From: Myxococcota bacterium
GTDB taxonomy: Bacteria > Myxococcota > XYA12-FULL-58-9 > JABJBS01
Assembly (NCBI GenBank): GCA_036339465.1
Contig: JAYZAY010000039.1
Span: 1 to 10,396 of the forward strand
Reading direction: 5' to 3'
Length of the DNA: 10,396 nucleotides
The position numbers were made by a program, and so were the translations under genes. Below, in pieces: positions 1 to 10,344 of the stretch. Below the pieces are notes generated by a model that saw only the letters and a program-made list of their open reading frames with translations, made no database searches and was not told the DNA's origin. Every line of letters begins with the position of its first letter. The first letter of the stretch is position 1.

Positions 1-60
1 AATAGAGCGGACGTGATGGCATATCTTGGGTGAATTCATGCTTTGATGAGTTCAAAAACC

Positions 61-121
61 GTGCCACTAAGATTCCTGCTTAATTATTGGCTTAAGATTC
101 CTGCTGAATTATTGGCTTGGC
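61..121. repeat. Family-1 boundary element, copy A, with a 25-bp tandem duplication
   Basis: GTGCCAC followed by TAAGATTCCTGCTTAATTATTGGCT (68-92) and TAAGATTCCTGCTGAATTATTGGCT (93-117), 1 mismatch, then a short TGGC echo (118-121). Ends 8 nt from the stop codon at 130-132. Confidence 0.9.
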
Positions 122-129
122 CTACAGAT

Positions 130-2349
130 CTAGCTAAGGGCGAAATGGTGTGTCTCAGTAACCGCTCCCCCGAGAAGATCTAGCTGCTCGTGACAAAATG
201 CGCCACACTCTGAAAATCGTTTCCAGCCCAAAGATCGTGCTTCAGGGCCTCGAGAATAAATATTTGCAATAATATCTTCGTTTAGAATCTTCGAATCTAG
301 CCCCAAAGCCAGATAAGCAACGCTAAGAGCGCGCCCTTCATCTTCGCCAAGAATCATGTCAATGAGCCGTCCAATCGATACTGCACAGCTTAACTTAGCC
401 AAAGCAATTGGCAGACCTCGTAATAGTTCCTCGGTTTGATGCCCAGAGTTTAGAAGGTTCTTTAATGTTTCAATTCTTGTCGTATCGCGGATTTCACCCA
501 CCGCAAATACACCGCTGGCCACGATACCGGCGTCGTCAGATTCGAGCATCTCAGTTATCACGACGTTGACTTGAGGACGAAGTCGCATATATTTCCACAA
601 GGCGATGCAGGTATTGGCGCGAACACGTCCCTCGGGGCGTTCTAAGAATGGTAAAAGTATCGAATAAACTCCTAAGTAGTTCAGGTAGCCAAGTCCTTCA
701 ATGGCATTGGCGACTACTCGGGTATCTTTATCCAGAAGGGATTGACGAAGAAGTTGGAAGGTCTCTTCATTGGGGTTGTGCGTCATTAAATTCTTAATTG
801 CGTATGCCTTTAACACCTTAGAGTGTGCGCATCGCCCCATTTGTATATTCCTAAGCGCTTCCGTCATGCGGAATTTTTGAAATGGATCCACATGAGTCGT
901 TTTTATTTTGCCAAGATAAGACAGCGCGGCTATCTTAACAGGTAAACAATAAGAATCATCGTCTATAATATCAAGGACGATAGGAAGACCCTCAGGATGA
1001 ATGGCCTTGCCTAAGATTTCAATCACTTCTATTTTTAAATCGACCGGCTGGTCACCCTTAATGATTCGGCGAAGCTCATTGAAGTACTCCTCTGAATCAA
1101 ACTGATCAAATAGCGCTATTGCGTTGGACTTGAGTTCATGGTCGGAAGAGCGCAAGAAAAAGAGAATGTCGGCATCAAACTTTTTGCTCGCAGAAATCCC
1201 GAGACAAACAAAGGCAATTACAACCACACAAATGCCCACTAACAGTATTTTGCCCGGCAATAAAAATAAGAAACCAACCATAAAAAACCCTGCAGATTGC
1301 GCCAAGATGTCCGACATTAAGCGTATTTGATCACGTTCTCCGCCGGGATATAGAGTTAGCTGATTGGCAAGCGCAATCGAATGTATACTTCCATCTATAA
1401 GTCGATAGCCTACGTATATAAGGATGCCAACAGTTAGAGTCGGAAATCCCAAGTAGAGAAAGGTGAATCCAGAAAATGCAAAACATGTAACCAGATATAT
1501 CCGACCAAGACCTATTTTATTGCAAATACGAGGATAGAGAAAAGCTGCAGAAGCTGTCGTCAGGATAGCCGAGGCTACATCGAGTGAGCCGTAGAGGCTA
1601 GTCAGGTTGTATTCAGATTCTTCAAATTTAGTTGCAACCAAAGACATCGCAACAAACCACAATAATGAATACAGAAATGTGAACAAACTCAATCGCCTGG
1701 GAAGTCGATACTCTTTTATTATGGACACAAGACCGCGCTTTTCCGAATTCTTCTTTTCCTGTGCCGGCTTCTCCTTCCAGGCCAACTTACTCTTTTCGCG
1801 GTTCTCCAATACAAGAAGCAGGCACCCTTGAAGCACCTGAAAACATTCAAGGCCTACCCATAGAAGTAGAAAGAAACCGATCTCGAGGTTCAATACGCCA
1901 GAGCATGCTGCCAATAATGCTCCGCCAAAGGCTCCGAATTGAGCCACGGTGCTTACCCAAGGAAAGAGTCGTTTCGACTGAAAGGGAGAAATAAGATAAC
2001 TTGCCAAAGACCACATCGAGAAATACACAACGATATTTGTTCCCATAATGGAAACAAAGGAGATTTTAGCCTTTAAATCTGGATCCGGCAGTATAAGACA
2101 ATAAATCCCAATCATCAGAAGCAAGCTATGGACTGTCAAGAAAGTGTAAATAGGACAGAGCCGTTCTGCAAAAGAAAGAAGAAGCATTGAAACGAGAAAA
2201 GTTAAAGCCGCGGATGCAGAATAGTAAAAAGCCAAATTTGCTGCTCCGATTTCCGAAATAAAGAAATCGAGGACCGCGCAACTCATCAAAACTTTCACAA
2301 AAAAACCGACGAAACCACTGAATAAAAGCAATACTTGATTTAAATTCAT
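130..2349 (-). CDS. MFS-like (TLC/Npt nucleotide-transporter-like) membrane domain fused to C-terminal HEAT repeats
   Basis: 739-aa ORF. The N-terminal ~390 aa hold about 12 hydrophobic segments split by a charged linker (KSKLAWKEKPAQEKKNSEKR) and include QSKRLFPWV, typical of the AKRLF motif in this group. The C-terminal half has HEAT-like repeats (DKDTRVVANAIEGLG, EGRVRANTCIALWK, DAGIVASGVFAVGE). AAGGGGA lies upstream of the ATG. Stop is TAG. Confidence 0.75.
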   Translation of the reverse strand: MNLNQVLLLFSGFVGFFVKVLMSCAVLDFFISEIGAANLAFYYSASAALTFLVSMLLLSFAERLCPIYTFLTVHSLLLMIGIYCLILPDPDLKAKISFVSIMGTNIVVYFSMWSLASYLISPFQSKRLFPWVSTVAQFGAFGGALLAACSGVLNLEIGFFLLLWVGLECFQVLQGCLLLVLENREKSKLAWKEKPAQEKKNSEKRGLVSIIKEYRLPRRLSLFTFLYSLLWFVAMSLVATKFEESEYNLTSLYGSLDVASAILTTASAAFLYPRICNKIGLGRIYLVTCFAFSGFTFLYLGFPTLTVGILIYVGYRLIDGSIHSIALANQLTLYPGGERDQIRLMSDILAQSAGFFMVGFLFLLPGKILLVGICVVVIAFVCLGISASKKFDADILFFLRSSDHELKSNAIALFDQFDSEEYFNELRRIIKGDQPVDLKIEVIEILGKAIHPEGLPIVLDIIDDDSYCLPVKIAALSYLGKIKTTHVDPFQKFRMTEALRNIQMGRCAHSKVLKAYAIKNLMTHNPNEETFQLLRQSLLDKDTRVVANAIEGLGYLNYLGVYSILLPFLERPEGRVRANTCIALWKYMRLRPQVNVVITEMLESDDAGIVASGVFAVGEIRDTTRIETLKNLLNSGHQTEELLRGLPIALAKLSCAVSIGRLIDMILGEDEGRALSVAYLALGLDSKILNEDIIANIYSRGPEARSLGWKRFSECGAFCHEQLDLLGGAVTETHHFALS

Positions 2350-2374
2350 AAACAGAACGTCCCCTTTATTTTTC

Positions 2375-2399
2375 CTCTCTCATTAGACCGATGAGAGAG
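2375..2399. promoter_or_regulatory. Perfect 9-bp inverted repeat upstream of the MFS-HEAT gene (possible operator or hairpin)
   Basis: CTCTCTCAT (2375-2383), 7-nt loop TAGACCG, ATGAGAGAG (2391-2399). 25 nt upstream of the ATG at 2349. Confidence 0.4.
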
Positions 2400-2469
2400 A
2401 ATTTTTCTTAACAGACGAGCGCGCATTCAACTCGAGTATTTACAACACTCTAGAATCAGAACAGAAAAC

Positions 2470-2500
2470 GAAAAAAGAAAAAAGAAAAAAAGAAAAAAGA
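2470..2500. repeat. Simple sequence repeat (GAAAAAA)n
   Basis: G-A6, G-A6, G-A7, G-A6, GA, directly abutting family-1 copy B. Confidence 0.85.
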
Positions 2501-2551
2501 TGCCACTAAGCTTCCTGCTTAATTATCCTTTAATTATTCTTTAATTATTCT
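2501..2551. repeat. Family-1 boundary element, copy B, with an 11-bp unit triplicated
   Basis: TGCCACTAAGCTTCCTGCTTAATTAT (2501-2526) matches 62-87 at 25/26. Units TTAATTATCCT (2519-2529), TTAATTATTCT (2530-2540) and TTAATTATTCT (2541-2551); the last unit overlaps the helicase stop. Confidence 0.9.
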
Positions 2552-3788
2552 TCTTTTCTTCAAATTTCTTCTGGGCCCGGAGCTTGTCTTTTTTACTTGG
2601 TCTCTTGCCCTTGACGGGGCCGGGTCCTTTTACTTCTGGTGGTCGGTCGCCCTGAATCTCAAAGCCCTCAATACTCTCTCGCTCAAGGTGTACTTTCGCT
2701 CGCTTCTCTATACTTTTAAAATGCGCCATGGTTTCATAATCGATAAAGCTTATGGCAGCACCGGACTTTCCGGCCCGCGCGGTTCTGCCTATCCGGTGAA
2801 TGTAGTCTTCCGGGGAGCGTGGTAAGTCGTAATTGATAACGCAATCAATGTTGTCTATGTCCAGACCTCTGGCCGCGATATCCGTGGCAAATAGGATATT
2901 GAACTGTTTGTACTTAAAAGCATCCAGCGTGTCATTCCGCATGTCTTGGTCCAGGTTGCCGTTGAATGCCGCAGCCTTAAAACCATGGCGTCTAAACTTC
3001 TCTGCAAGATTACTGCTCGCCCGTTTGCTTGCCATAAAAACAAGAACCAGTGGCCAATCATTTTCACTTAAGAGATGCCTAAGTAAAGGGCCGCGATTGT
3101 AGTGGTCGACCTCGATAACCCGTTGCTGAATCGACTCAACGGTCGGTGCTTCTTGCGCAATTCGCACCTCAATTGGATCCGATGTAATCCTAGATGCCAC
3201 TTGTTTGGTTTTGGCCGGGTAAGTTGCCGAAAATAGCAGATTCTGGCGCTTCTCAGGGATGGCATCGAGAATTAAATCCAACTCTTGTGCAAAGTCGGCA
3301 TTCAGCATCTTGTCGGCTTCATCCAGGACGAAAAACTCCAAACGAGATAGGTTCATCTGGTCCTTGCGAAGAATATCCAAGAACCGGCCCGTGGTTGCCA
3401 CCAAGATATCGCAACCTTGCTGAATATCATAAAGCTGCTCGCCGATGCTTTCTCCGCCAATCACTCTGACAACCCGAGGCATGTTGGGCAGCAAGCTGCC
3501 GAATTCTCTAAACACATCGGCTATTTGAAGGGCAAGTTCTCGGGTAGGTGTGAGGACAAGTGCTTTAGTCTTTGGTTTCCCTTCACCTTTGCTGGCGTTC
3601 CACATCTGTAGAATGGGCAGGATGAAAGCAGCGCTTTTTCCGCTTCCCGTTTGAGCCAAGGCCACAACATCTTGTCCATCAAGCACAAGGGGGATGACTT
3701 GCTCTTGAACTGGAGTTGGCGCGTTGTAGCCTTGTTCTTGAAGGGCTAAATGGGTCTCTTGGGTTAACCCAAGCTCGAAAAATTGCAT
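2541..3788 (-). CDS. rhlE: DEAD-box ATP-dependent RNA helicase, RhlE-like
   Basis: Q motif GYNAPTPVQ, motif I AQTGSGKS, Ia PTRELA, Ib TTGRF, II LDEAD, III SAT, V TDIAARGLD, VI HRIGRTAR. Basic C-terminal tail KGKRPSKKDKLR. AGGA 7 nt before the ATG. The family call is secure; the rhlE subfamily label is less so. Confidence 0.93.
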   Translation of the reverse strand: MQFFELGLTQETHLALQEQGYNAPTPVQEQVIPLVLDGQDVVALAQTGSGKSAAFILPILQMWNASKGEGKPKTKALVLTPTRELALQIADVFREFGSLLPNMPRVVRVIGGESIGEQLYDIQQGCDILVATTGRFLDILRKDQMNLSRLEFFVLDEADKMLNADFAQELDLILDAIPEKRQNLLFSATYPAKTKQVASRITSDPIEVRIAQEAPTVESIQQRVIEVDHYNRGPLLRHLLSENDWPLVLVFMASKRASSNLAEKFRRHGFKAAAFNGNLDQDMRNDTLDAFKYKQFNILFATDIAARGLDIDNIDCVINYDLPRSPEDYIHRIGRTARAGKSGAAISFIDYETMAHFKSIEKRAKVHLERESIEGFEIQGDRPPEVKGPGPVKGKRPSKKDKLRAQKKFEEKKNN

Positions 3789-3882
3789 CCAACGGTCCTA
3801 ACACAGCGCCAGCACGGATTGCGGCGAAAAGTTGATGAACTGAGACCATACAGGAAATTACTGGCGTTGACGAACCACAATT

Positions 3883-4050
3883 GAGAGTAAATCAACGCGG
3901 AAGGAGAGTAAATCAGCCGGCAACATTATGGGACTCTGCCCTAACTGACTAATCAAGCCGATATTTTCGTGGTTTCGTTGGGCTTAACGAAGTGCCTGTA
4001 ATGTTCCCGGTTGATTTACTTCTATGTTCCCGGTTGATTTACTTCTTTCT
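3883..4050. repeat. Family-1 element copy C plus an inverted copy: long imperfect inverted repeat with tandemly duplicated outer ends
   Basis: Left arm AGTAAATCAGCCGGCAACATTATGGGACT (3907-3935) versus right arm AGTGCCTGTAATGTTCCCGGTTGATTTACT (3991-4020): 20/22 complementary over the outer 22 nt. GAGAGTAAATCA is repeated at 3883 and 3904. ATGTTCCCGGTTGATTTACTTCT is repeated perfectly at 4001-4023 and 4024-4046. Confidence 0.9.
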
Positions 4051-4061
4051 ACTCCGACTCG

Positions 4062-5738
4062 TCACGATGAACAACTGTAGTGGGATACGCCCCCGACGCT
4101 GAAGAATTCCTCGGGCCTGAGGCGGTCGTATTTCGCCCCTATTTCCGGTGACTGCTCTTCGTAGGGATGGCTGAACACCGTCTGAAGCTCGTTGATGAGG
4201 CTGTAATCACCTTCTTCAGCTTTTTTGTATGCGGGGGCGATTAACCATTCGCGCCAGGCGTACTTCGGGTTCATGCGTTTCATTGCTGCGGAGGTCACGT
4301 TAAGGTCGCCCTCGTTTGCGAGGCGCTTGCGCCATTGCGGCAGCCATTGATCCCACCGTGTCTCAACTTGCTCTGAGGTGGGCGCATAGAAACTGTCTTT
4401 GAGAACTTCGAGTTCGTCAGGAATGTGAGAGAGCTTTCGGAAAAACATCGTGTAGTCAGCCTTGGACAGAATCATCAGTTGCAAGAGTTCTTGCACCAGA
4501 GTCGCGTCGTAGTGGGCCAGGCCAAGCTTCTTTGCCCACATGGCCTCAAAATCTCGGCGCATAACGTCGGCGAAGCCGTCTCGAGCCTTATCCAGTTTTA
4601 CCAGTGCCTCCTCGTTGCCCGATAGAAGAGAACGGATGGATGCGCAGAACATATGAAAATTCGCTTCGGCGGCAGCGGGTTGGTTGAAGAGAGAAAAGTG
4701 TTCGCCGCCCCCCGTCCACGGTTGAAATCGAGGGTCAAAGAGTTCGCAGAAACCAAAGGGACCATAATCGAGTGTGTAGCCACCCGCGGCGCAGTTGTCA
4801 CTGTTGAAATTTCCCTGGCAGTAACCAACGCGGATCCAGTTACACACAAGTGACGTGAGACGTTCTCGAAATAAGATGGCCAGCTCGACCACTTGTTCAG
4901 CAAAGGCAAGGCTCGGGTCTATTTTCTCTTTGTAGTTTCGTTCGATGAGGTGCGTCACGAGTAACTGCAATTCGTTTAGGGCATCTGGATGGTCATTGCT
5001 CCGTGCACGTCGAGCAAAGAGCTCAACCTGGCCTACCCTGAGAAACGATGGTGCGACCCGTGTTGTGATGGCCGTAGGGTTGTCTACAAGGATGTCGGGA
5101 TTGAAGGAGTTCGAGTTCTCCAAATACCAAGGCCGACGCACTCTTTCCGATTTCGATACGTATAAGGTTAGAGAACGTGAGGTGGGGACACCCAGGGCTT
5201 GCATGTATTCCTGTGCTAGAAACTCCCGCACACTTGAGCGGAGCACGGCACGACCATCTGCCCCACGACAATAAGGCGTCCGGCCTCCTCCCTTCAATTG
5301 CATCTCCCAGCGTTTTGCCTTGAAGAGGCCTTCGAACACTGAAATTGCTCGACCATCACCGTAGCCGTTTCCGGTCCCAAACGGACATTGCTGGTTGTAT
5401 TCAGTCCCGTAGATCGACAGGGCATAACCCGTCGCCCAGCCCAACGGGCGCATTGGTTCCTGCGCCACGCTTATGTCGCCAGAAAACAAACGGCCGAATT
5501 TTTCGTCAAGTGCAAGCTCCTGGCTCAACCCCAATTCCTTAAACAAGGTTTTGCTGTGCGCGATGTATTCCGGATCTGGAATTGCTGTGGGGGTCACCGG
5601 TACGTAATGCCCCGAAAACACTTCGCGGGGCCGGTGGTCGTGGCCATCTTCGGTCGCCTCAGGGTCTGCGTTGAGCGAAGTGAGGAGCGAATAGTCAGCC
5701 CGTTGTATAAACTCATCAAATGTTTTTGTTGTTGGCAT
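4062..5738 (-). CDS. selO: Protein adenylyltransferase SelO/YdiU family (pseudokinase AMPylase), Cys form
   Basis: [82 protein letters not shown], and the C-terminal SCSS typical of the family. Confidence 0.93.
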
Positions 5739-5841: not shown

Positions 5842-5871
5842 GAGCCTAGGGAATTCAACCGACCAAAAACC
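5842..5871 (+). repeat. Degenerate isolated copy of the family-2 (MITE) terminal sequence
   Basis: GAGCCTAGGGAATTCAACCGACCAAAAACC matches the reverse complement of 7678-7707 (GAGTCTAGGGAAATCAAGCAAGCAAAAACC) at 25/30 without gaps. Confidence 0.7.
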
Positions 5872-5899: not shown

Positions 5900-6436
5900 T
5901 CAGCCAGGCTCATGGTCCTGCTCCGCATTGGTTGCAACAAGTAAAAGCGGCTCTAAGATCACCTCCACCGAAAGGGTGGGATCTCCTCGAAGCGATTGGA
6001 CCTCATTGGTTAATCGCTCACATCGGCGGACCAACTCAAATAGGTTAAGTCCGGCAACGCAGGGCTCCGGCCGTTGCTCGTCAACGCTCCGCAAGTGAGA
6101 GGAAGACTGCTTAAGCAGAGACAAAGCCGCCCTTCCGTATCCCTGTCGAACTTTAACACCTACCGCCGCGAGCTGAATGAGCCCTTGGAGGAACTCCCCC
6201 ACTAGCCCTTTCCGATCAACGGTCTTCCATATCCCTTCCCAAGCCTCGTGGGCTTCCCAATAATAGCCGGCGTTGAACAGCTCGATGCCTCTCAAATACG
6301 GCTCGCAGTGTGCCCACTCTCCTAGAACAAGCGCCTCTGCAATCTGCGGTTTTTCTCCATGGCTGTGCCCTGCTGGATCTCGCGTAGGATGCGGCCAATG
6401 CCCCGGAATGAAGCTGTAAGGGGGATACCTAGCCAT
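5900..6436 (-). CDS. DUF309 domain-containing protein
   Basis: Signatures GIELFNAGYYWEAHEAWE and FLQGLIQLAA, with a Pro/His-rich N-terminal extension PPYSFIPGHWPHP. Starts 15 nt after the stop of the MBL-fold gene, so the two are probably co-transcribed. Confidence 0.88.
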   Translation of the reverse strand: MARYPPYSFIPGHWPHPTRDPAGHSHGEKPQIAEALVLGEWAHCEPYLRGIELFNAGYYWEAHEAWEGIWKTVDRKGLVGEFLQGLIQLAAVGVKVRQGYGRAALSLLKQSSSHLRSVDEQRPEPCVAGLNLFELVRRCERLTNEVQSLRGDPTLSVEVILEPLLLVATNAEQDHEPG

Positions 6437-6451: not shown

Positions 6452-7069
6452 TCACGGGTTGAGGCGCTCTTCGAGTCTGCCAACTAAGGCACAGAGTTCC
6501 TTGTGACCGTCTGCAAAAAGGTGCCACCCGTCACCCACCAACACCGTCTCTATCTGAGTATATTCCGTAAGTCGTCGGACGGACTCTAGAGCGGCTCGGG
6601 GATCTTGGAGTTTGAGATCCGGCAGTGCTATCAACGTTAGGGGGGTATGGGCACGGATGAGATCGCCGGTGATGAGGGTCGTATGCTCGTAGAGAAGACA
6701 GAGCTCACCGGGGGTCTTGGAGCCATCCATCTCGATGACTTTGAGCCCACCGGCCATCTCATCCCCATGGCCCAGCCATCGGTCGCACACATAACCAAAG
6801 CCGTCTCTGTGTGCTGCGGGTCCGGCGACCCGAGCGTTGAAGTGTTCTTGTAACTTGGCGGCGCCTCGAATGTGGTCTGAATTGGTGAGCACGATCCAGT
6901 CGATGCCTCCTAACTCATTCACGTGGTTTAGATCGTGCTCCGAAAGTGGAAGCGGATCGATCACAATATTGCCCTGGTCTAGACAAATAAGAACGCTGTT
7001 AAAGTCGATATTGCGTTCCTCGTTGAACTCGGACCAGGAAAAGAGATTGGGCAGATGCAAAGATTTCAT
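6452..7069 (-). CDS. MBL-fold (metallo-beta-lactamase superfamily) protein with non-canonical metal motifs
   Basis: GNIVIDP, IVLTNSDHIR (at the HxHxDH position), GSKTPGE (at the GHTPG position), LITGDL, VLVGDG. GGAG lies 10 nt upstream of the ATG. Confidence 0.85.
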   Translation of the reverse strand: MKSLHLPNLFSWSEFNEERNIDFNSVLICLDQGNIVIDPLPLSEHDLNHVNELGGIDWIVLTNSDHIRGAAKLQEHFNARVAGPAAHRDGFGYVCDRWLGHGDEMAGGLKVIEMDGSKTPGELCLLYEHTTLITGDLIRAHTPLTLIALPDLKLQDPRAALESVRRLTEYTQIETVLVGDGWHLFADGHKELCALVGRLEERLNP

Positions 7070-7292
7070 GGCGAACTCGCTCCAATGTTCACGGGACGAG
7101 GAGAAGCAGATTTAGGGCCCCGTCGCTTGGACAGATTCGTCGCCCTGAGGGTGATAGTCAAGATCTAAAATAGTGGTCCACCCAGGCCAGCGCGGTAGTA
7201 ATCCCGAAAATGTCGCGTAACTGCAATCTTCACAAAATAGGCTTCGATGAGTCTAAAATGAATGATGTTCTAGTTCCTGGTACATCGATTCC

Positions 7293-7463
7293 TCAACCAA
7301 GACCCACCAAGATGGCAATTCCCGTGAGTGTAATCGTGTAGGAGACCACCTCCACCTGTTGAAGCGGAATACGGTATGCGTCCGCAACAGCCGCAACGGC
7401 GGGCACCGAGTCTAGGAGAAACCGTTTCGACAGTGTCACGGCGGGTTTTACTTTCGTTATCAC
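7293..7463 (-). CDS. Possible small membrane protein or gene remnant (56 aa), below the ORF-track cut-off
   Basis: GTG 7463 to TGA 7295-7293 gives MITKVKPAVTLSKRFLLDSVPAVAAVADAYRIPLQQVEVVSYTITLTGIAILVGLG, with a hydrophobic C-terminus. No clear RBS. Confidence 0.2.
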   Translation of the reverse strand: MITKVKPAVTLSKRFLLDSVPAVAAVADAYRIPLQQVEVVSYTITLTGIAILVGLG

Positions 7464-7545
7464 CCGTTTTCAAATGGAGGAGATTGAGGGATGAAGGCAC
7501 GCTTTCAAGCCTAGGGACGCAGGAGCGAGTAGCGCCAAAATCCAG

Positions 7546-7710
7546 ATGGAGTCTAGGGAAATCAAGCTAGAAGCGAGGTTCAGTGGTGGTTTAGAGCCAT
7601 TTTGGGTGAAGAATGGCGCAAAACTAGCGGCGTACCGGTCGGACTCGGACCAAAGCTTTCGCTACTTGGGAATACCCGGTTTTTGCTTGCTTGATTTCCC
7701 TAGACTCCAT
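7546..7710. mobile_element. MITE-like non-autonomous element (165 bp), family 2
   Basis: Perfect 22-bp terminal inverted repeat ATGGAGTCTAGGGAAATCAAGC (7546-7567 and 7689-7710). No coding capacity. A related copy starts at 10280. Confidence 0.8.
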
Positions 7711-7798
7711 AAACAAGTTTCCGTCCCAAAAAGGGAAGAACGACGGAGTTATAGAGGGTTTGCCTGTCTAGAAGTTTTTGCTGGTCCATGAGATTTTA

Positions 7799-8104
7799 GT
7801 GAACCAATTCACCATAGGACAAACGGTTTACCACCGAAAATTCGGTTGCCGTGGGGTGGTCATCGGTTTGGATGAAGCCTTTCAGGATTCGGTCAAATGG
7901 TATTAGGTCGCTGCCCAATCCCTTCCTCCCAAGGATAAATCTTGGTATCACATACTCGTCCATGGAGCATCGAACCGAACCTACGTAGCCGAGCGGCATC
8001 TCGAACCAGACGACAGTGGAGAGCCCACTGAACATCCCGGGGTCGACGATTTCTTTGACCAGTTTCGAGAAATCATCTATAGCAATTCTCAAACGTTGAC
8101 TTGA
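7799..8104 (+). pseudogene. hspQ: Heat shock protein HspQ / YccV-like gene with one in-frame TAG at codon 36
   Basis: Manual translation from GTG 7799: MNQFTIGQTVYHRKFGCRGVVIGLDEAFQDSVKWY*VAAQSLPPKDKSWYHILVHGASNRTYVAERHLEPDDSGEPTEHPGVDDFFDQFREIIYSNSQTLT, stop TGA 8102-8104. Motifs FxIGQxVxH, RGVV, WYHILV, TYVAERxLEPD and HP are characteristic of HspQ/YccV. The TAG is at 7904-7906. An alternative TTG start is at 7778. Confidence 0.88.
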
Positions 8105-8115
8105 CCCATGATGCA

Positions 8116-9762
8116 ATGACTATTTTATCCCCAACCGAAGTCGTTATTCGCTATCACGAAGAAACCAAACACCATTTTCATCGTTACGCACGCTCTCTCG
8201 GATACATGGATTGGGCCACCCAGCCGTGTCCATTTCGCTACTATGAGGGAGCGCACCGTCTTGATTTGAACCGCTTTCCTAGTGCCGCCCATTTTTCCTT
8301 TGACGAATTGTATGCCGAGCCGAACCTACCTTCACGCCCTGTTGACTCAGACAGTTTGTCCGAATTCCTCCGGTATGGCGTTGGGATATCGGCGTGGAAG
8401 GAGTACCAGGGACAGCGCTGGTCGTTACGTGTGGATCCGTCTAGCGGAAATCTACACCCAAGCGAGATCTACTGCGTATTTGGCGCTTCGTCGTCCTTCG
8501 CTTCTGAGCCTAGCATCTATCATTATGTTTCCGAGACCCATTCGCTTGAGCGCCGGGGCCAGTTGAACTCCTACGCTTGGCAATCATTTGTAGAGAATTG
8601 GCCAACCGGAAGCTTCCTGGTTGTTGTGAGTTCCATTCATTGGCGGGAATCGTGGAAATACGGAGAACGAGCGTATCGCTATTGTCAGCATGATGCGGGA
8701 CATGTTCTTGCTTGTCTGCGCTTTTCTGCGGCGATGTTGGGTTGGAATCTAAAGCTATATCCAGGATGGTCCGATGAAAATATAAGCCGCCTAGCCGGCC
8801 TGAGCAGCGAAGGCAGTTCTATTGAGTTCGAACGCGAAGTGGGAGATTTTATCGCCCTGGTTAGTCCAACAAAAAAAAATGAATGCGCTATATATTCCAG
8901 TAACATCGAAAGCGTGATTCGAGAGGCGCAATGGTTCGGTCGAGCTAACCAACTCAGCAGCGATCATGTTAGTTGGGACATCATCGACGACGTCCACGCC
9001 GCAGCATACAATCCAGGAAGCGAAAGTGACGGGCAACTATTACAAACACCTATTCGTCTATCAAGAGAGTACGCGCCAGCGAACCCGTTATTAGTCGATG
9101 CACACAAAATAATCCTAAAACGACGTAGTGCTCAGAAGTTTGACGGTGTCGGGCGTATCCCGAACGAGACGTTCTTCCGCATGCTCACTCGCACATTACC
9201 CGATATTCATGCTCCATGGGATGCCATGTATTGGCCTCCCTATATTCACCTCGTACTTTTTGTTCATCGGGTCGATGAATTGGCAGAGGGCATATACATG
9301 CTTGTCCGTAACAACCATATATTGGACACGCTTAAACAGGCAATGTTACCTGACTTCTCTTGGCAAAAACCAGATAGTTCTCCTGATGAATTGCCCCTCT
9401 ATTTGCTCAAAGAAGGTGATTTTTCAGAAGTCGCCAAACAACTCTCGTGCCAGCAGGATATCGCTGGCGACGGTTTTTTTAGCCTGGGTATGCTCGCCGA
9501 GTTTAGTGAACCGATTCAAAAATGGGGACCGTGGTTCTATCGCAACCTGTTCTGGGAAACTGGGGTAATCGGACAGGTCCTATATCTAGAAGCGGAGGCC
9601 GTGAATGCTCGAGCGACCGGTATCGGGTGTTTTTTCGACGACGCTGTTCACGATGTCCTTGGGCTCAAGGGAAACACCTTCCAAATCCTCTATCATTTCA
9701 CATTAGGTACGTCTGTCACCGATCAGCGTTTAACTACCTTGCCGGCATATGCTGAAATCTGA
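8116..9762 (+). CDS. SagB/ThcOx-family dehydrogenase (tandem nitroreductase-fold, FMN-dependent oxidoreductase)
   Basis: YHEETKH, GYMDWATQP, LRVDPSSGNLHPSE, WRESWKYGERAYRYCQHDAGH, second domain ILKRRSAQKFD, LSCQQDIAGD, GQVLYLEAEA, ATGIGCFFDD, LYHFTLG. ATG 8116 (548 aa) is preferred over TTG 8101, which overlaps the hspQ stop. Confidence 0.88.
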   Translation: MTILSPTEVVIRYHEETKHHFHRYARSLGYMDWATQPCPFRYYEGAHRLDLNRFPSAAHFSFDELYAEPNLPSRPVDSDSLSEFLRYGVGISAWKEYQGQRWSLRVDPSSGNLHPSEIYCVFGASSSFASEPSIYHYVSETHSLERRGQLNSYAWQSFVENWPTGSFLVVVSSIHWRESWKYGERAYRYCQHDAGHVLACLRFSAAMLGWNLKLYPGWSDENISRLAGLSSEGSSIEFEREVGDFIALVSPTKKNECAIYSSNIESVIREAQWFGRANQLSSDHVSWDIIDDVHAAAYNPGSESDGQLLQTPIRLSREYAPANPLLVDAHKIILKRRSAQKFDGVGRIPNETFFRMLTRTLPDIHAPWDAMYWPPYIHLVLFVHRVDELAEGIYMLVRNNHILDTLKQAMLPDFSWQKPDSSPDELPLYLLKEGDFSEVAKQLSCQQDIAGDGFFSLGMLAEFSEPIQKWGPWFYRNLFWETGVIGQVLYLEAEAVNARATGIGCFFDDAVHDVLGLKGNTFQILYHFTLGTSVTDQRLTTLPAYAEI

Positions 9763-9867: not shown

Positions 9868-10122
9868 ATGTCCAAATATGACGTAACAACAAATGGAGCT
9901 TCCTGGGAGAAGTTACGATGTCACCTAAAAGAGATGGAGGAAATGCTCGGTCAGCCGCAATTCAACCTCGTTCATTTTGCAAAAATTTATGAAGAATCGG
10001 CGAAAACACTCTTGAAGGCCATCAAAGAACGGGGGATTTCCAGTTCTAGATTTGAAGCAGCGGCGAAAGCCCTGAACCTCACAACAGCAAAGTCCAAGCT
10101 CGACCGTTTCCTACAAGACTGA
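9868..10122 (+). CDS. Hypothetical protein (84 aa, likely helical)
   Basis: ATG preceded by purine-rich AAGGAAGG (9849-9856). It occupies an otherwise empty interval, has a normal charged/amphipathic composition and no recognisable motif. Confidence 0.6.
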   Translation: MSKYDVTTNGASWEKLRCHLKEMEEMLGQPQFNLVHFAKIYEESAKTLLKAIKERGISSSRFEAAAKALNLTTAKSKLDRFLQD

Positions 10123-10279
10123 GATGCTTCTGCTTAAGTCGAAGACAATGACCATCTGTTGTAATACGTGTATCTCCAATATAGGTTAATCTCGGTACAA
10201 ACCAGCAGGCATCTAAGACAATAAACACATTTAACAAGAAGACAGAGTTCTTCAGGATGTGGATATGCATAGAGCGAAA

Positions 10280-10344
10280 AGTCTAGGGAAAACAAGCTAG
10301 CAAAAACCGCTTCTTCCCGAGTACCGAAAGATTTGGTCCGACCG
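10280..10344. mobile_element. Second, inverted and diverged copy of the family-2 MITE end
   Basis: 10280-10341 matches the reverse complement of 7645-7706 at 54/62 without gaps. The match extends by CCG if the TCGGAC duplication (7639-7650) in the first copy is collapsed. Confidence 0.82.

Follow-up and report, generated by a model that had tools for sequence, protein, structure and literature searches.

Short repeats at the ends of three genes

What are the short repeats that follow one unrelated gene after another in contig JAYZAY010000039.1? This metagenome contig, whose 10,396 nucleotides make up the whole window analysed here, carries three copies of a motif of about 25 bp, all in the same orientation and each at the end of a minus-strand gene: copy A behind the gene for a transporter-HEAT membrane protein (130-2349), copy B behind that for an RhlE-like DEAD-box RNA helicase (2541-3788), and copy C behind that for the SelO/YdiU protein adenylyltransferase (4062-5738). 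A first-pass annotation had recorded these copies and read them as the joints of an array of single-gene units. The observation is confirmed, and the interpretation is partly supported. It is proposed here that each motif is an arm belonging to a family of short intergenic repeats, non-coding and probably mobile, that resemble MITEs (miniature inverted-repeat transposable elements) and REPINs, the hairpin-forming doublets of repetitive extragenic palindromic (REP) elements. In this model, the doublet is complete in C, while A and B each consist of one arm only, a proposal to which we give about an even chance of being correct.

The kinship of A and B is plain. Positions 61-85 and 2500-2524 are identical at 23 of 25 bases, and the similarity extends to 30/34 when 54-87 is aligned with 2493-2526 (local-alignment z 14.7). 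Furthermore, a 26-letter pattern with one free position matches only A and B in the window, and two matches were seen in 0 of 200 shuffles. C (3992-4016) has 18/25 bases in common with A and 17/25 with B. On either strand, no sequence other than A and B resembles A more closely, and the tandem copy belonging to A itself (86-110, also 18/25) equals it. A match to A of at least 18/25 arose in 4 of 300 Markov-1 simulated windows. Given this rarity, the same orientation, and the site after a stop codon, C is unlikely to be a chance match and would, from its bases, be a weaker, diverged relative of the other two. The three same-orientation copies originally reported therefore stand.

When the repeated units are delimited as arms, arm A occupies 61-92 on the plus strand, the core that it has in common with B being 54-87 and its outer end lying at 92. 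A tandem copy of its outer 25 nt follows at 93-117 (24/25 identical); after it come a 4-nt echo (118-121) and, with a 12-nt spacer between the last unit and the gene, the transporter stop codon (130-132). Arm B lies at 2500-2529 on the plus strand (core common with A, 2493-2526) and is followed by two more copies of its outer 11 nt at 2530-2551. The last of these (2541-2551) consists of the helicase stop codon (2541-2543) and the final 8 coding bases, so that the B array overlaps the helicase gene; at precisely this overlap of 11-nt units and coding sequence, the C-terminal seven or so residues of the helicase depart from those of its closest relatives. Thus, the claim that every copy lies immediately beyond a stop codon is true of A and C, which are just past theirs, but not of B. 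Tandem Repeats Finder (TRF) recovers the arrays at all three gene-facing ends with the periods first noted: 68-118 (period 25, 2.0 copies, 96% matches), 2519-2552 (period 11, 3.1 copies, 95%), and 4001-4046 (period 23, 2.0 copies, 100%). The only other TRF loci in the 10.4 kb are an A-rich run at 2465-2500 and a weak one at 8710-8730. The A-rich run, an AAAAAGA-like simple repeat of about five copies, adjoins arm B at the end away from the gene, appears as an extended T-rich stretch on the transcribed strand, and gave a spurious Rfam match to Plasmodium RNase P. The 4-nt echoes beyond the arrays (TGGC and TTCT) are present, and they are too short for statistics.

A profile of the four arms (A, B, and the two of C described below) finds no further copy in the window, the next best match having an E-value of 0.65. 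There is weak evidence for a decayed fourth copy on the minus strand at 10203-10224, which scores 29 against a maximum of 27 in 100 shuffles and lies, in the matching orientation, about 80 nt past the stop codon of a plus-strand open reading frame (ORF) of 84 amino acids.

Element C as a hairpin-forming doublet

Copy C is one half of a larger structure. The inverted partner that had been noted for it is real: 3907-3928 pairs with 3999-4020 over 22 nt at 91% identity. The full arms, a left one at 3904-3935 on the minus strand and a right one at 3992-4023 on the plus strand, the latter being copy C itself, agree at 22 of 32 positions and are separated by a 56-nt spacer. Each is extended outwards. 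A decayed tandem copy (16/21) of the outer 21 nt of the left arm lies at 3883-3903, and a perfect copy (23/23) of the outer 23 nt of the right arm lies at 4024-4046, leaving a 15-nt spacer before the SelO stop codon (4062-4064). By eye, the DNA adjoining the C arms consists of inverted copies of the arm ends. With these outer copies included, the element spans 3883-4046 and contains no ORF. It folds well, both as RNA (-41.2 kcal/mol, z -3.2) and as single-stranded DNA (-22.1 kcal/mol, z -4.6), and in each case 0 of 200 shuffles folded as well.

Consequently, C alone among the copies has the size and termini of a MITE (120-164 bp, below 300 bp, with terminal inverted repeats and no coding capacity), and C alone has the two inverted units and spacer, folding into a hairpin, of a REPIN. 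No inverted partner of A or B is present in 1-129 or 2350-2540, the window ending 60 nt beyond arm A. The arms are also neither coding nor tRNA nor a known RNA family, which is in keeping with the proposal: ARAGORN finds no tRNA or tmRNA in the window, and Rfam, at E up to 1, returns a low-complexity match only.

A fixed junction at the arm terminus

The tandem copies share a feature that their different periods conceal. All four arms carry one or two extra outward copies of their own terminal 11-25 nt. In every case the junction falls at nearly the same place, arm position 32, 30, 32, and 32 for A, B, and the two arms of C, whereas the inner start of the copied piece varies (arm positions 8, 20, 10, and 12). 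Microhomology at the junction amounts to 0-1 nt. Such a regular pattern suggests that some event is linked to the arm's outer terminus.

Taken together, these results lead to the following model. C, between selO and the helicase gene, would be a complete copy, with two inverted arms of about 32 nt, a 56-nt spacer, and a long hairpin, while A and B would be single arms, either remnants or half-copies. The arms would lodge in short spacers just past stop codons, where insertions would be tolerated, and the copies would owe their spread or upkeep to an enzyme whose gene lies elsewhere in the genome. Candidates are a Y1/HUH enzyme of the REP-associated tyrosine transposase (RAYT) type and a DDE transposase. 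The former is considered because such genes are reported in picocyanobacteria, TnpA_REP (RAYT) genes having been described in LLIV Prochlorococcus and marine Synechococcus (10.1101/2020.03.09.984088). This part of the model is close to a suggestion of the first-pass annotation, in which a RAYT-like nuclease from elsewhere in the genome was a candidate driver. The outer arm terminus (position 30-32) may be a point of repeated DNA cutting or of a replication template switch, either of which would account for the one or two extra copies of the terminal 11-25 nt of each arm. The arms would not, then, be joints between gene cassettes; two foreign-looking genes nearby would instead be a trait of the neighbourhood, a flexible region beside selO. 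In addition, the transporter gene lies between direct repeats (A and B, 34 nt), which could make it prone to loss or duplication.

Relation to REP elements and MITEs

The repeats resemble REP elements and REPINs in that they are small extragenic sequences that do not code, adjoin or overlap stop codons, and occur both as an inverted doublet with a spacer of tens of bases that forms a hairpin (C) and as singles (A and B). In the available text of PMC3733652 and PMC3116915, REP elements are described as reiterated in tandem with variable flanking DNA and as overlapping stop codons; REPINs, in the available text of the latter, are inverted doublets whose spacer separates the arms of a hairpin, and singlets are their decayed remnants. 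REP elements are present in tens to hundreds of copies per genome, together with a linked RAYT gene. However, each REP is itself an imperfect palindrome of 20-40 nt, whereas the arms here hardly fold alone. As single-stranded DNA, arm A reaches -3.5 kcal/mol (z -1.6), arm B -3.1 (z -1.1), and the C arms 0 and -0.6, so that none falls below z -1.6, and a stem of 5-7 AT-rich base pairs is present only in A and B. Because the single arms barely fold, they are not palindromic REPs in the strict sense. Nor is the outward copying of an arm terminus at a fixed junction among the REP features given in the available parts of the same two papers. The tetranucleotide GTAG (or CGTC) is described as the conserved end tag of one REP superfamily. 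Two arms have GTAG on the gene strand, at a distance of 2-4 nt beyond their last unit: A (122-125) and the right arm of C (4049-4052). It is absent at B and at the left arm of C, and this count of two arms in four comes from a motif that was looked for after the REP paper had been read.

The likeness to bacterial MITEs lies mainly in C, which is below 300 bp, has terminal inverted repeats, does not code, sits beside genes, and folds into a robust hairpin; an unrelated element at 7546-7710 has the same build. Unlike MITEs, C shows no target-site duplication, and A and B are single arms in direct orientation. Examples of bacterial MITEs are Nezha in cyanobacteria and Correia/NEMIS in Neisseria. 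The arms have been assigned to a MITE/REPIN-like class rather than to REP proper because they lack the palindrome and because the picocyanobacterial RAYT subgroup is said to go with a different repeat; this assignment could fall either way with nearly equal probability.

Several results weigh against the model of small mobile repeats. In addition to the poor folding of single arms, which lack the imperfect palindrome of a REP, no target-site duplication is evident by eye on either side of 3883-4046 or of 3904-4023. The loci of this family seen so far number three to four, all in this window. Among the eight ORFs of note and seven small ORFs of the window, there is no Pfam or NCBIfam match to a recombinase, transposase, integrase, or RAYT. 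The picocyanobacterial RAYT subgroup is associated with inverted repeats of consensus GGGG[AT][CG]A[CG] (10.1101/2020.03.09.984088), and this motif is not in the arms. Furthermore, a census of MITEs, as far as the available text of PMC11602168 goes, lists none in 1184 Prochlorococcus genomes, and the available part of 10.1101/2020.12.28.424599 calls Prochlorococcus nearly devoid of classical mobile elements. The fixed outer junction with its 0-1 nt of microhomology fits no tested mechanism. Finally, three consecutive same-orientation copies at gene ends, beside two foreign-looking genes, suit an array of gene cassettes equally well.

In genome contigs, at least 120 loci matched a 20-letter arm pattern with two free positions, which is too short and AT-rich a pattern for such a scan, and none of those listed resembles the window by blastn or tblastn. 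Among those listed, the Prochlorococcus matches lie inside the conserved coding sequence of an AAA-ATPase, and the others are scattered singles or one duplicated stretch; when the four-arm profile was applied to the listed loci, it matched the pattern matches themselves only. No description of this repeat family was found in the literature searched, which is not proof that it is unpublished. The repeats are a modest addition to the known kinds of small repeats, and the fixed terminal junction is the one odd regularity.

A second hairpin family in the same window

Support for a general habit of small repeats comes from the right half of the window. An element of 165 bp at 7546-7710 has 25-nt inverted arms at 96% identity and folds at -42.8 kcal/mol (z -7.5). 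An inverted partial copy (62 nt, 87%) lies at 10280-10341, and a further partial copy of 30 nt lies at 5842-5871, 28 nt past the stop codon of a gene for a DUF309 protein. This second family, unrelated to the first, occupies intergenic spacers beside ordinary picocyanobacterial genes and so favours the model of mobile repeats, since on this evidence the placing of small repeats at gene ends is general in this genome and not confined to foreign-looking genes. Two hairpin families on one picocyanobacterial contig are mildly unexpected, given the empty MITE census and the view of Prochlorococcus as nearly free of classical mobile elements. A terminator-like hairpin followed by a T run is found at 7666-7685, inside the 165-bp element.

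The two families have a short sequence in common. The 8-mer AATYAASC occurs seven times in the window (78-85, 2517-2524, 3951-3958, 4009-4016, 4032-4039, 7560-7567, and 7689-7696) against 1.78 expected, and 1 of 200 shuffles reached seven. All seven sites are inside elements of one family or the other, near arm ends. On its bases, this hints at a common binding core and at kinship of the two families, but the pattern was chosen after the copies had been seen, so that the statistic is post hoc and only a lead.

Gene capture at the arms

Marine picocyanobacteria are said to have next to no classical mobile elements, and how they gain and lose flexible genes is still debated; a process of that kind has to be weighed here. 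In this alternative, the helicase and transporter genes entered beside selO serially as small circular units, a copy of the arm was left behind at each integration, and staggered cuts, made at a set distance from the recognised motif, gave rise to the tandem copies. The layout invites such a view: the arms behind the three consecutive genes point the same way and occupy the same site, a single gene and its leader lie between A and B, which are direct repeats of 34 nt (30/34), and the tandem junction recurs at arm position 32, 30, 32, and 32.

The relatives of the genes also bear on it. About one-eighth of the listed protein matches carry an organism name. For SelO, 11 of the 12 organism-named matches among the 120 listed are Prochlorococcus, Synechococcus, or Cyanobium at 75-77% identity, the remaining one being a metagenome-assembled genome (MAG) labelled Proteobacteria. 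For the helicase, all 14 named matches among the 120 listed are Campylobacterota at 65-69%, and matches without an organism name reach 86%. The transporter has three relatives in all: a fragment at 99% identity and two proteins at 55% and 53%, the second of them from a Myxococcota MAG. The G+C content at third codon positions (GC3) is 0.51 for the helicase gene and 0.42 for the transporter gene, against 0.59, 0.57, and 0.61 for the next three genes from selO rightwards. In addition, RhlE-like helicases in cyanobacteria are described as horizontally acquired in the available text of PMC8190605. To judge from these comparisons, the contig looks as if it comes from an uncultured picocyanobacterium, with a SelO typical of the group, and its left 4 kb look like a flexible region beside selO in which two of the three genes are foreign-looking, a label that is soft because few matches carry organism names. 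Relatives and GC3 alike tilt the balance for these two genes towards units that were acquired.

However, other observations speak against serial entry. B and C agree at 17/25 scattered positions, with no identical run that could serve as a crossover core, and C, with its two arms and hairpin, is no simple att-like repeat. There is no integrase, RAYT, or other recombinase in the window. The 'foreign' label suffers from the scarcity of named matches, TLC-HEAT proteins are also found in Cyanobacteriota, and the GC3 of a nitroreductase-like gene, that of the SagB-type dehydrogenase further right, is 0.50 as well. Serial entry of the two genes at the arms is accordingly judged unlikely. The doublet structure of C, the lack of a crossover core between B and C, the absence of a recombinase from the window, and the second repeat family beside ordinary genes also tell against the original picture of one-gene units linked in a row at a single site of recombination or nicking, and that part of it is not upheld.

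Comparison with known capture systems sharpens this assessment. Integron cassette arrays, with their attC sites (e.g., the VCRs of Vibrio), likewise consist of gene and element in alternation, in one orientation, with the element just after the stop codon and alike after unrelated genes. An attC site is an imperfect palindrome of 57-141 bp with paired core sites; A and B lack a dyad of that size, having no inverted partner, and the window has no intI or attI. C alone has an attC-like length (about 120 bp) and symmetry, its core having been compared with the attC consensus by eye. A CRISPR array, with identical repeats at regular intervals and unique spacers of like length, does not match either, since the spacings of 2.4 and 1.5 kb contain whole genes. 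The tycheposon arrays of Prochlorococcus islands, as far as the available part of 10.1101/2020.12.28.424599 describes them, are similar in having a picocyanobacterial host and short repeated sites that separate flexible-gene units after serial integration. According to the same text, each of their sites is a piece of a tRNA or tmRNA gene, about 40 nt long, and the elements carry a tyrosine recombinase, whereas here there is no tRNA-like sequence or recombinase, which is a further point against integration at the arms. Blastn searches of 1-4100 and of the A and C regions against phage and plasmid collections gave nothing, or chance matches at E = 7, and thus no link to a cyanophage attachment site. 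A tRNA-derived attachment site, a Tn7-like end, a dif-like site, and an NtcA or HLR1 box were also considered by eye against consensus sequences; none suited more than one arm, and none is claimed.

A more specific form of the capture idea is that the 32-nt arm is the recognition site of a picocyanobacterial system distinct from both integrons and tycheposons. Single foreign genes, here an RhlE-like helicase of Campylobacterota affinity and a TLC-HEAT transporter, would have been inserted serially downstream of selO by a trans-acting enzyme that cuts at the fixed arm position 30-32, and the tandem copies would be its cleavage footprints. We think this less likely still than serial entry in general. 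Should the arms turn out to be recombination sites, a globally abundant group would have a new way of capturing genes one at a time. Two hairpin-forming families on one contig, one of them around two foreign-looking genes, suggest that some picocyanobacterial lineages carry small repeats able to shape flexible regions.

Because the left-hand genes differ in their relatives, an assembly explanation also arises, in which a picocyanobacterial piece (selO rightwards) was joined inside C to the DNA of another organism and the tandem copies are assembly errors. The window is an entire metagenome contig of 10,396 bases, there is a composition shift at about 4000, the 23-nt tandem copy beside the putative joint is 100% identical, and neither left-hand gene has a named picocyanobacterial relative (among the 120 matches listed for the helicase and the three in all for the transporter). 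On the other hand, the right arm of C lies on the selO side and yet is akin to A and B across the putative joint, and AATYAASC recurs on both sides of the supposed joint. Helicase and transporter proteins at 99-100% identity are encoded on other contigs, which says nothing about the joint itself. A comparison of left and right tetranucleotide frequencies is uninformative at these lengths, given that independent pairs lie near r = 0 and that two right-hand pieces give r = -0.13. A chimera of this kind is very improbable.

A possible Pho box at B

The 11-nt units at B raise the question of whether the direct repeats are phased protein-binding sites, that is, a regulatory array. In this case, the three units would constitute a cyanobacterial Pho box for the phosphate regulator SphR/PhoB, and the transporter gene or an antisense transcript would be under phosphate control. 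The degenerate consensus YTTAAYYW-N3-YTTAAYYW-N3-YTTAAYYW, which represents such a box, is matched without mismatch at 2518-2547. This is the only match in the window at up to three mismatches, 0.01 were expected, and 1 of 200 shuffles matched. B thus has three 8-bp boxes with 3-bp linkers, an exact match to the known layout. The available text of PMC1906773 describes that layout as at least three 8-bp boxes with 3-bp linkers, of consensus CTTAACCT, with examples that include the Synechocystis pstS2 site; the distance of the B array from the transporter start codon (170-198 nt upstream) is within the range of the table there.

Nevertheless, the boxes read on the plus strand, away from the transporter and into the helicase gene as antisense, which would be the wrong way round for a classical activator site of the one gene that starts nearby, and no convincing -10 element follows them by eye. 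A and C, with periods of 25 and 23 nt, do not suit an 11-nt register. The units at B are 96-100% identical, linkers included, which looks like recent duplication rather than selected sites, and the match was spotted after the fact in AT-rich sequence. We therefore attach a low probability to phosphate control through B, comparable to that of a dedicated capture system. If B functions as a Pho box, phosphate stress would be linked to an acquired gene that resembles those for nucleotide transporters. In the leader of the transporter gene there is also a hairpin with a 10-bp stem (2375-2399), 26 nt upstream of the start codon, and a purine-rich stretch resembling a ribosome-binding site just after it.

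Transcript 3' ends

Since the arms are directly after stop codons and on the transcribed strand, they might instead be a 3' end signal, a common terminator or mRNA-stabilising module reused at each gene end. A and B do contain a short AU-rich hairpin with a T run within 2-4 nt, and cyanobacteria are said to rely on factor-independent termination (10.1101/2020.03.09.984088). However, a terminator scan gave 13 sites in the window against 12.0 expected, with none at A, B, or C on the minus strand, and RNA from the A and B regions folds no better than shuffles (z +0.57 and -0.02 for pieces of 91-100 nt, +0.46 and -1.14 for short ones). Moreover, the A and B cores differ in one base, which in A disrupts the closing pair of the hairpin, C has no T run, and the tandem copies are left unexplained. 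A shared transcript end is thus slightly less probable than the Pho box, and the model of MITE/REPIN-like arms is retained over it.

Other genes of the window

The window contains eight ORFs of note, and the gene labels used from the outset (MFS-HEAT, helicase, SelO) are borne out. The transporter protein (739 amino acids, TLC/MFS-like) has about ten hydrophobic segments within its first 390 residues and an HEAT_2 match at E 5e-15, which supports a transporter-HEAT fusion, and its Atlas neighbours carry both the TLC and the HEAT families. The helicase (415 amino acids) has DEAD and Helicase_C matches, and the SelO protein (558 amino acids) is a clear match of the picocyanobacterial type. To the right of selO, the minus strand encodes the DUF309 protein (5900-6436) and a Lactamase_B_5 protein (6452-7069). 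The following 726 nt (7070-7795) contain no convincing gene, and Rfam finds nothing there. An ORF at 7376-7570 in this interval was considered as a transposase remnant, HTH_29 being a domain common in transposases, and was rejected because its HTH_29 match is sub-threshold (E 0.025, 15 bits against a cut-off of 28).

Beyond this interval, an ORF of 106 amino acids on the minus strand (7796-8116) overlaps by 16 nt the start of a SagB-type dehydrogenase gene on the opposite strand (8101-9762, plus). The dehydrogenase has 553 amino acids and matches the peptide dehydrogenase family TIGR03605 at E 8.5e-35. The plus-strand ORF of 84 amino acids mentioned above (9868-10122), which belongs to no family, lies downstream, and the two may be a peptide-modification pair.

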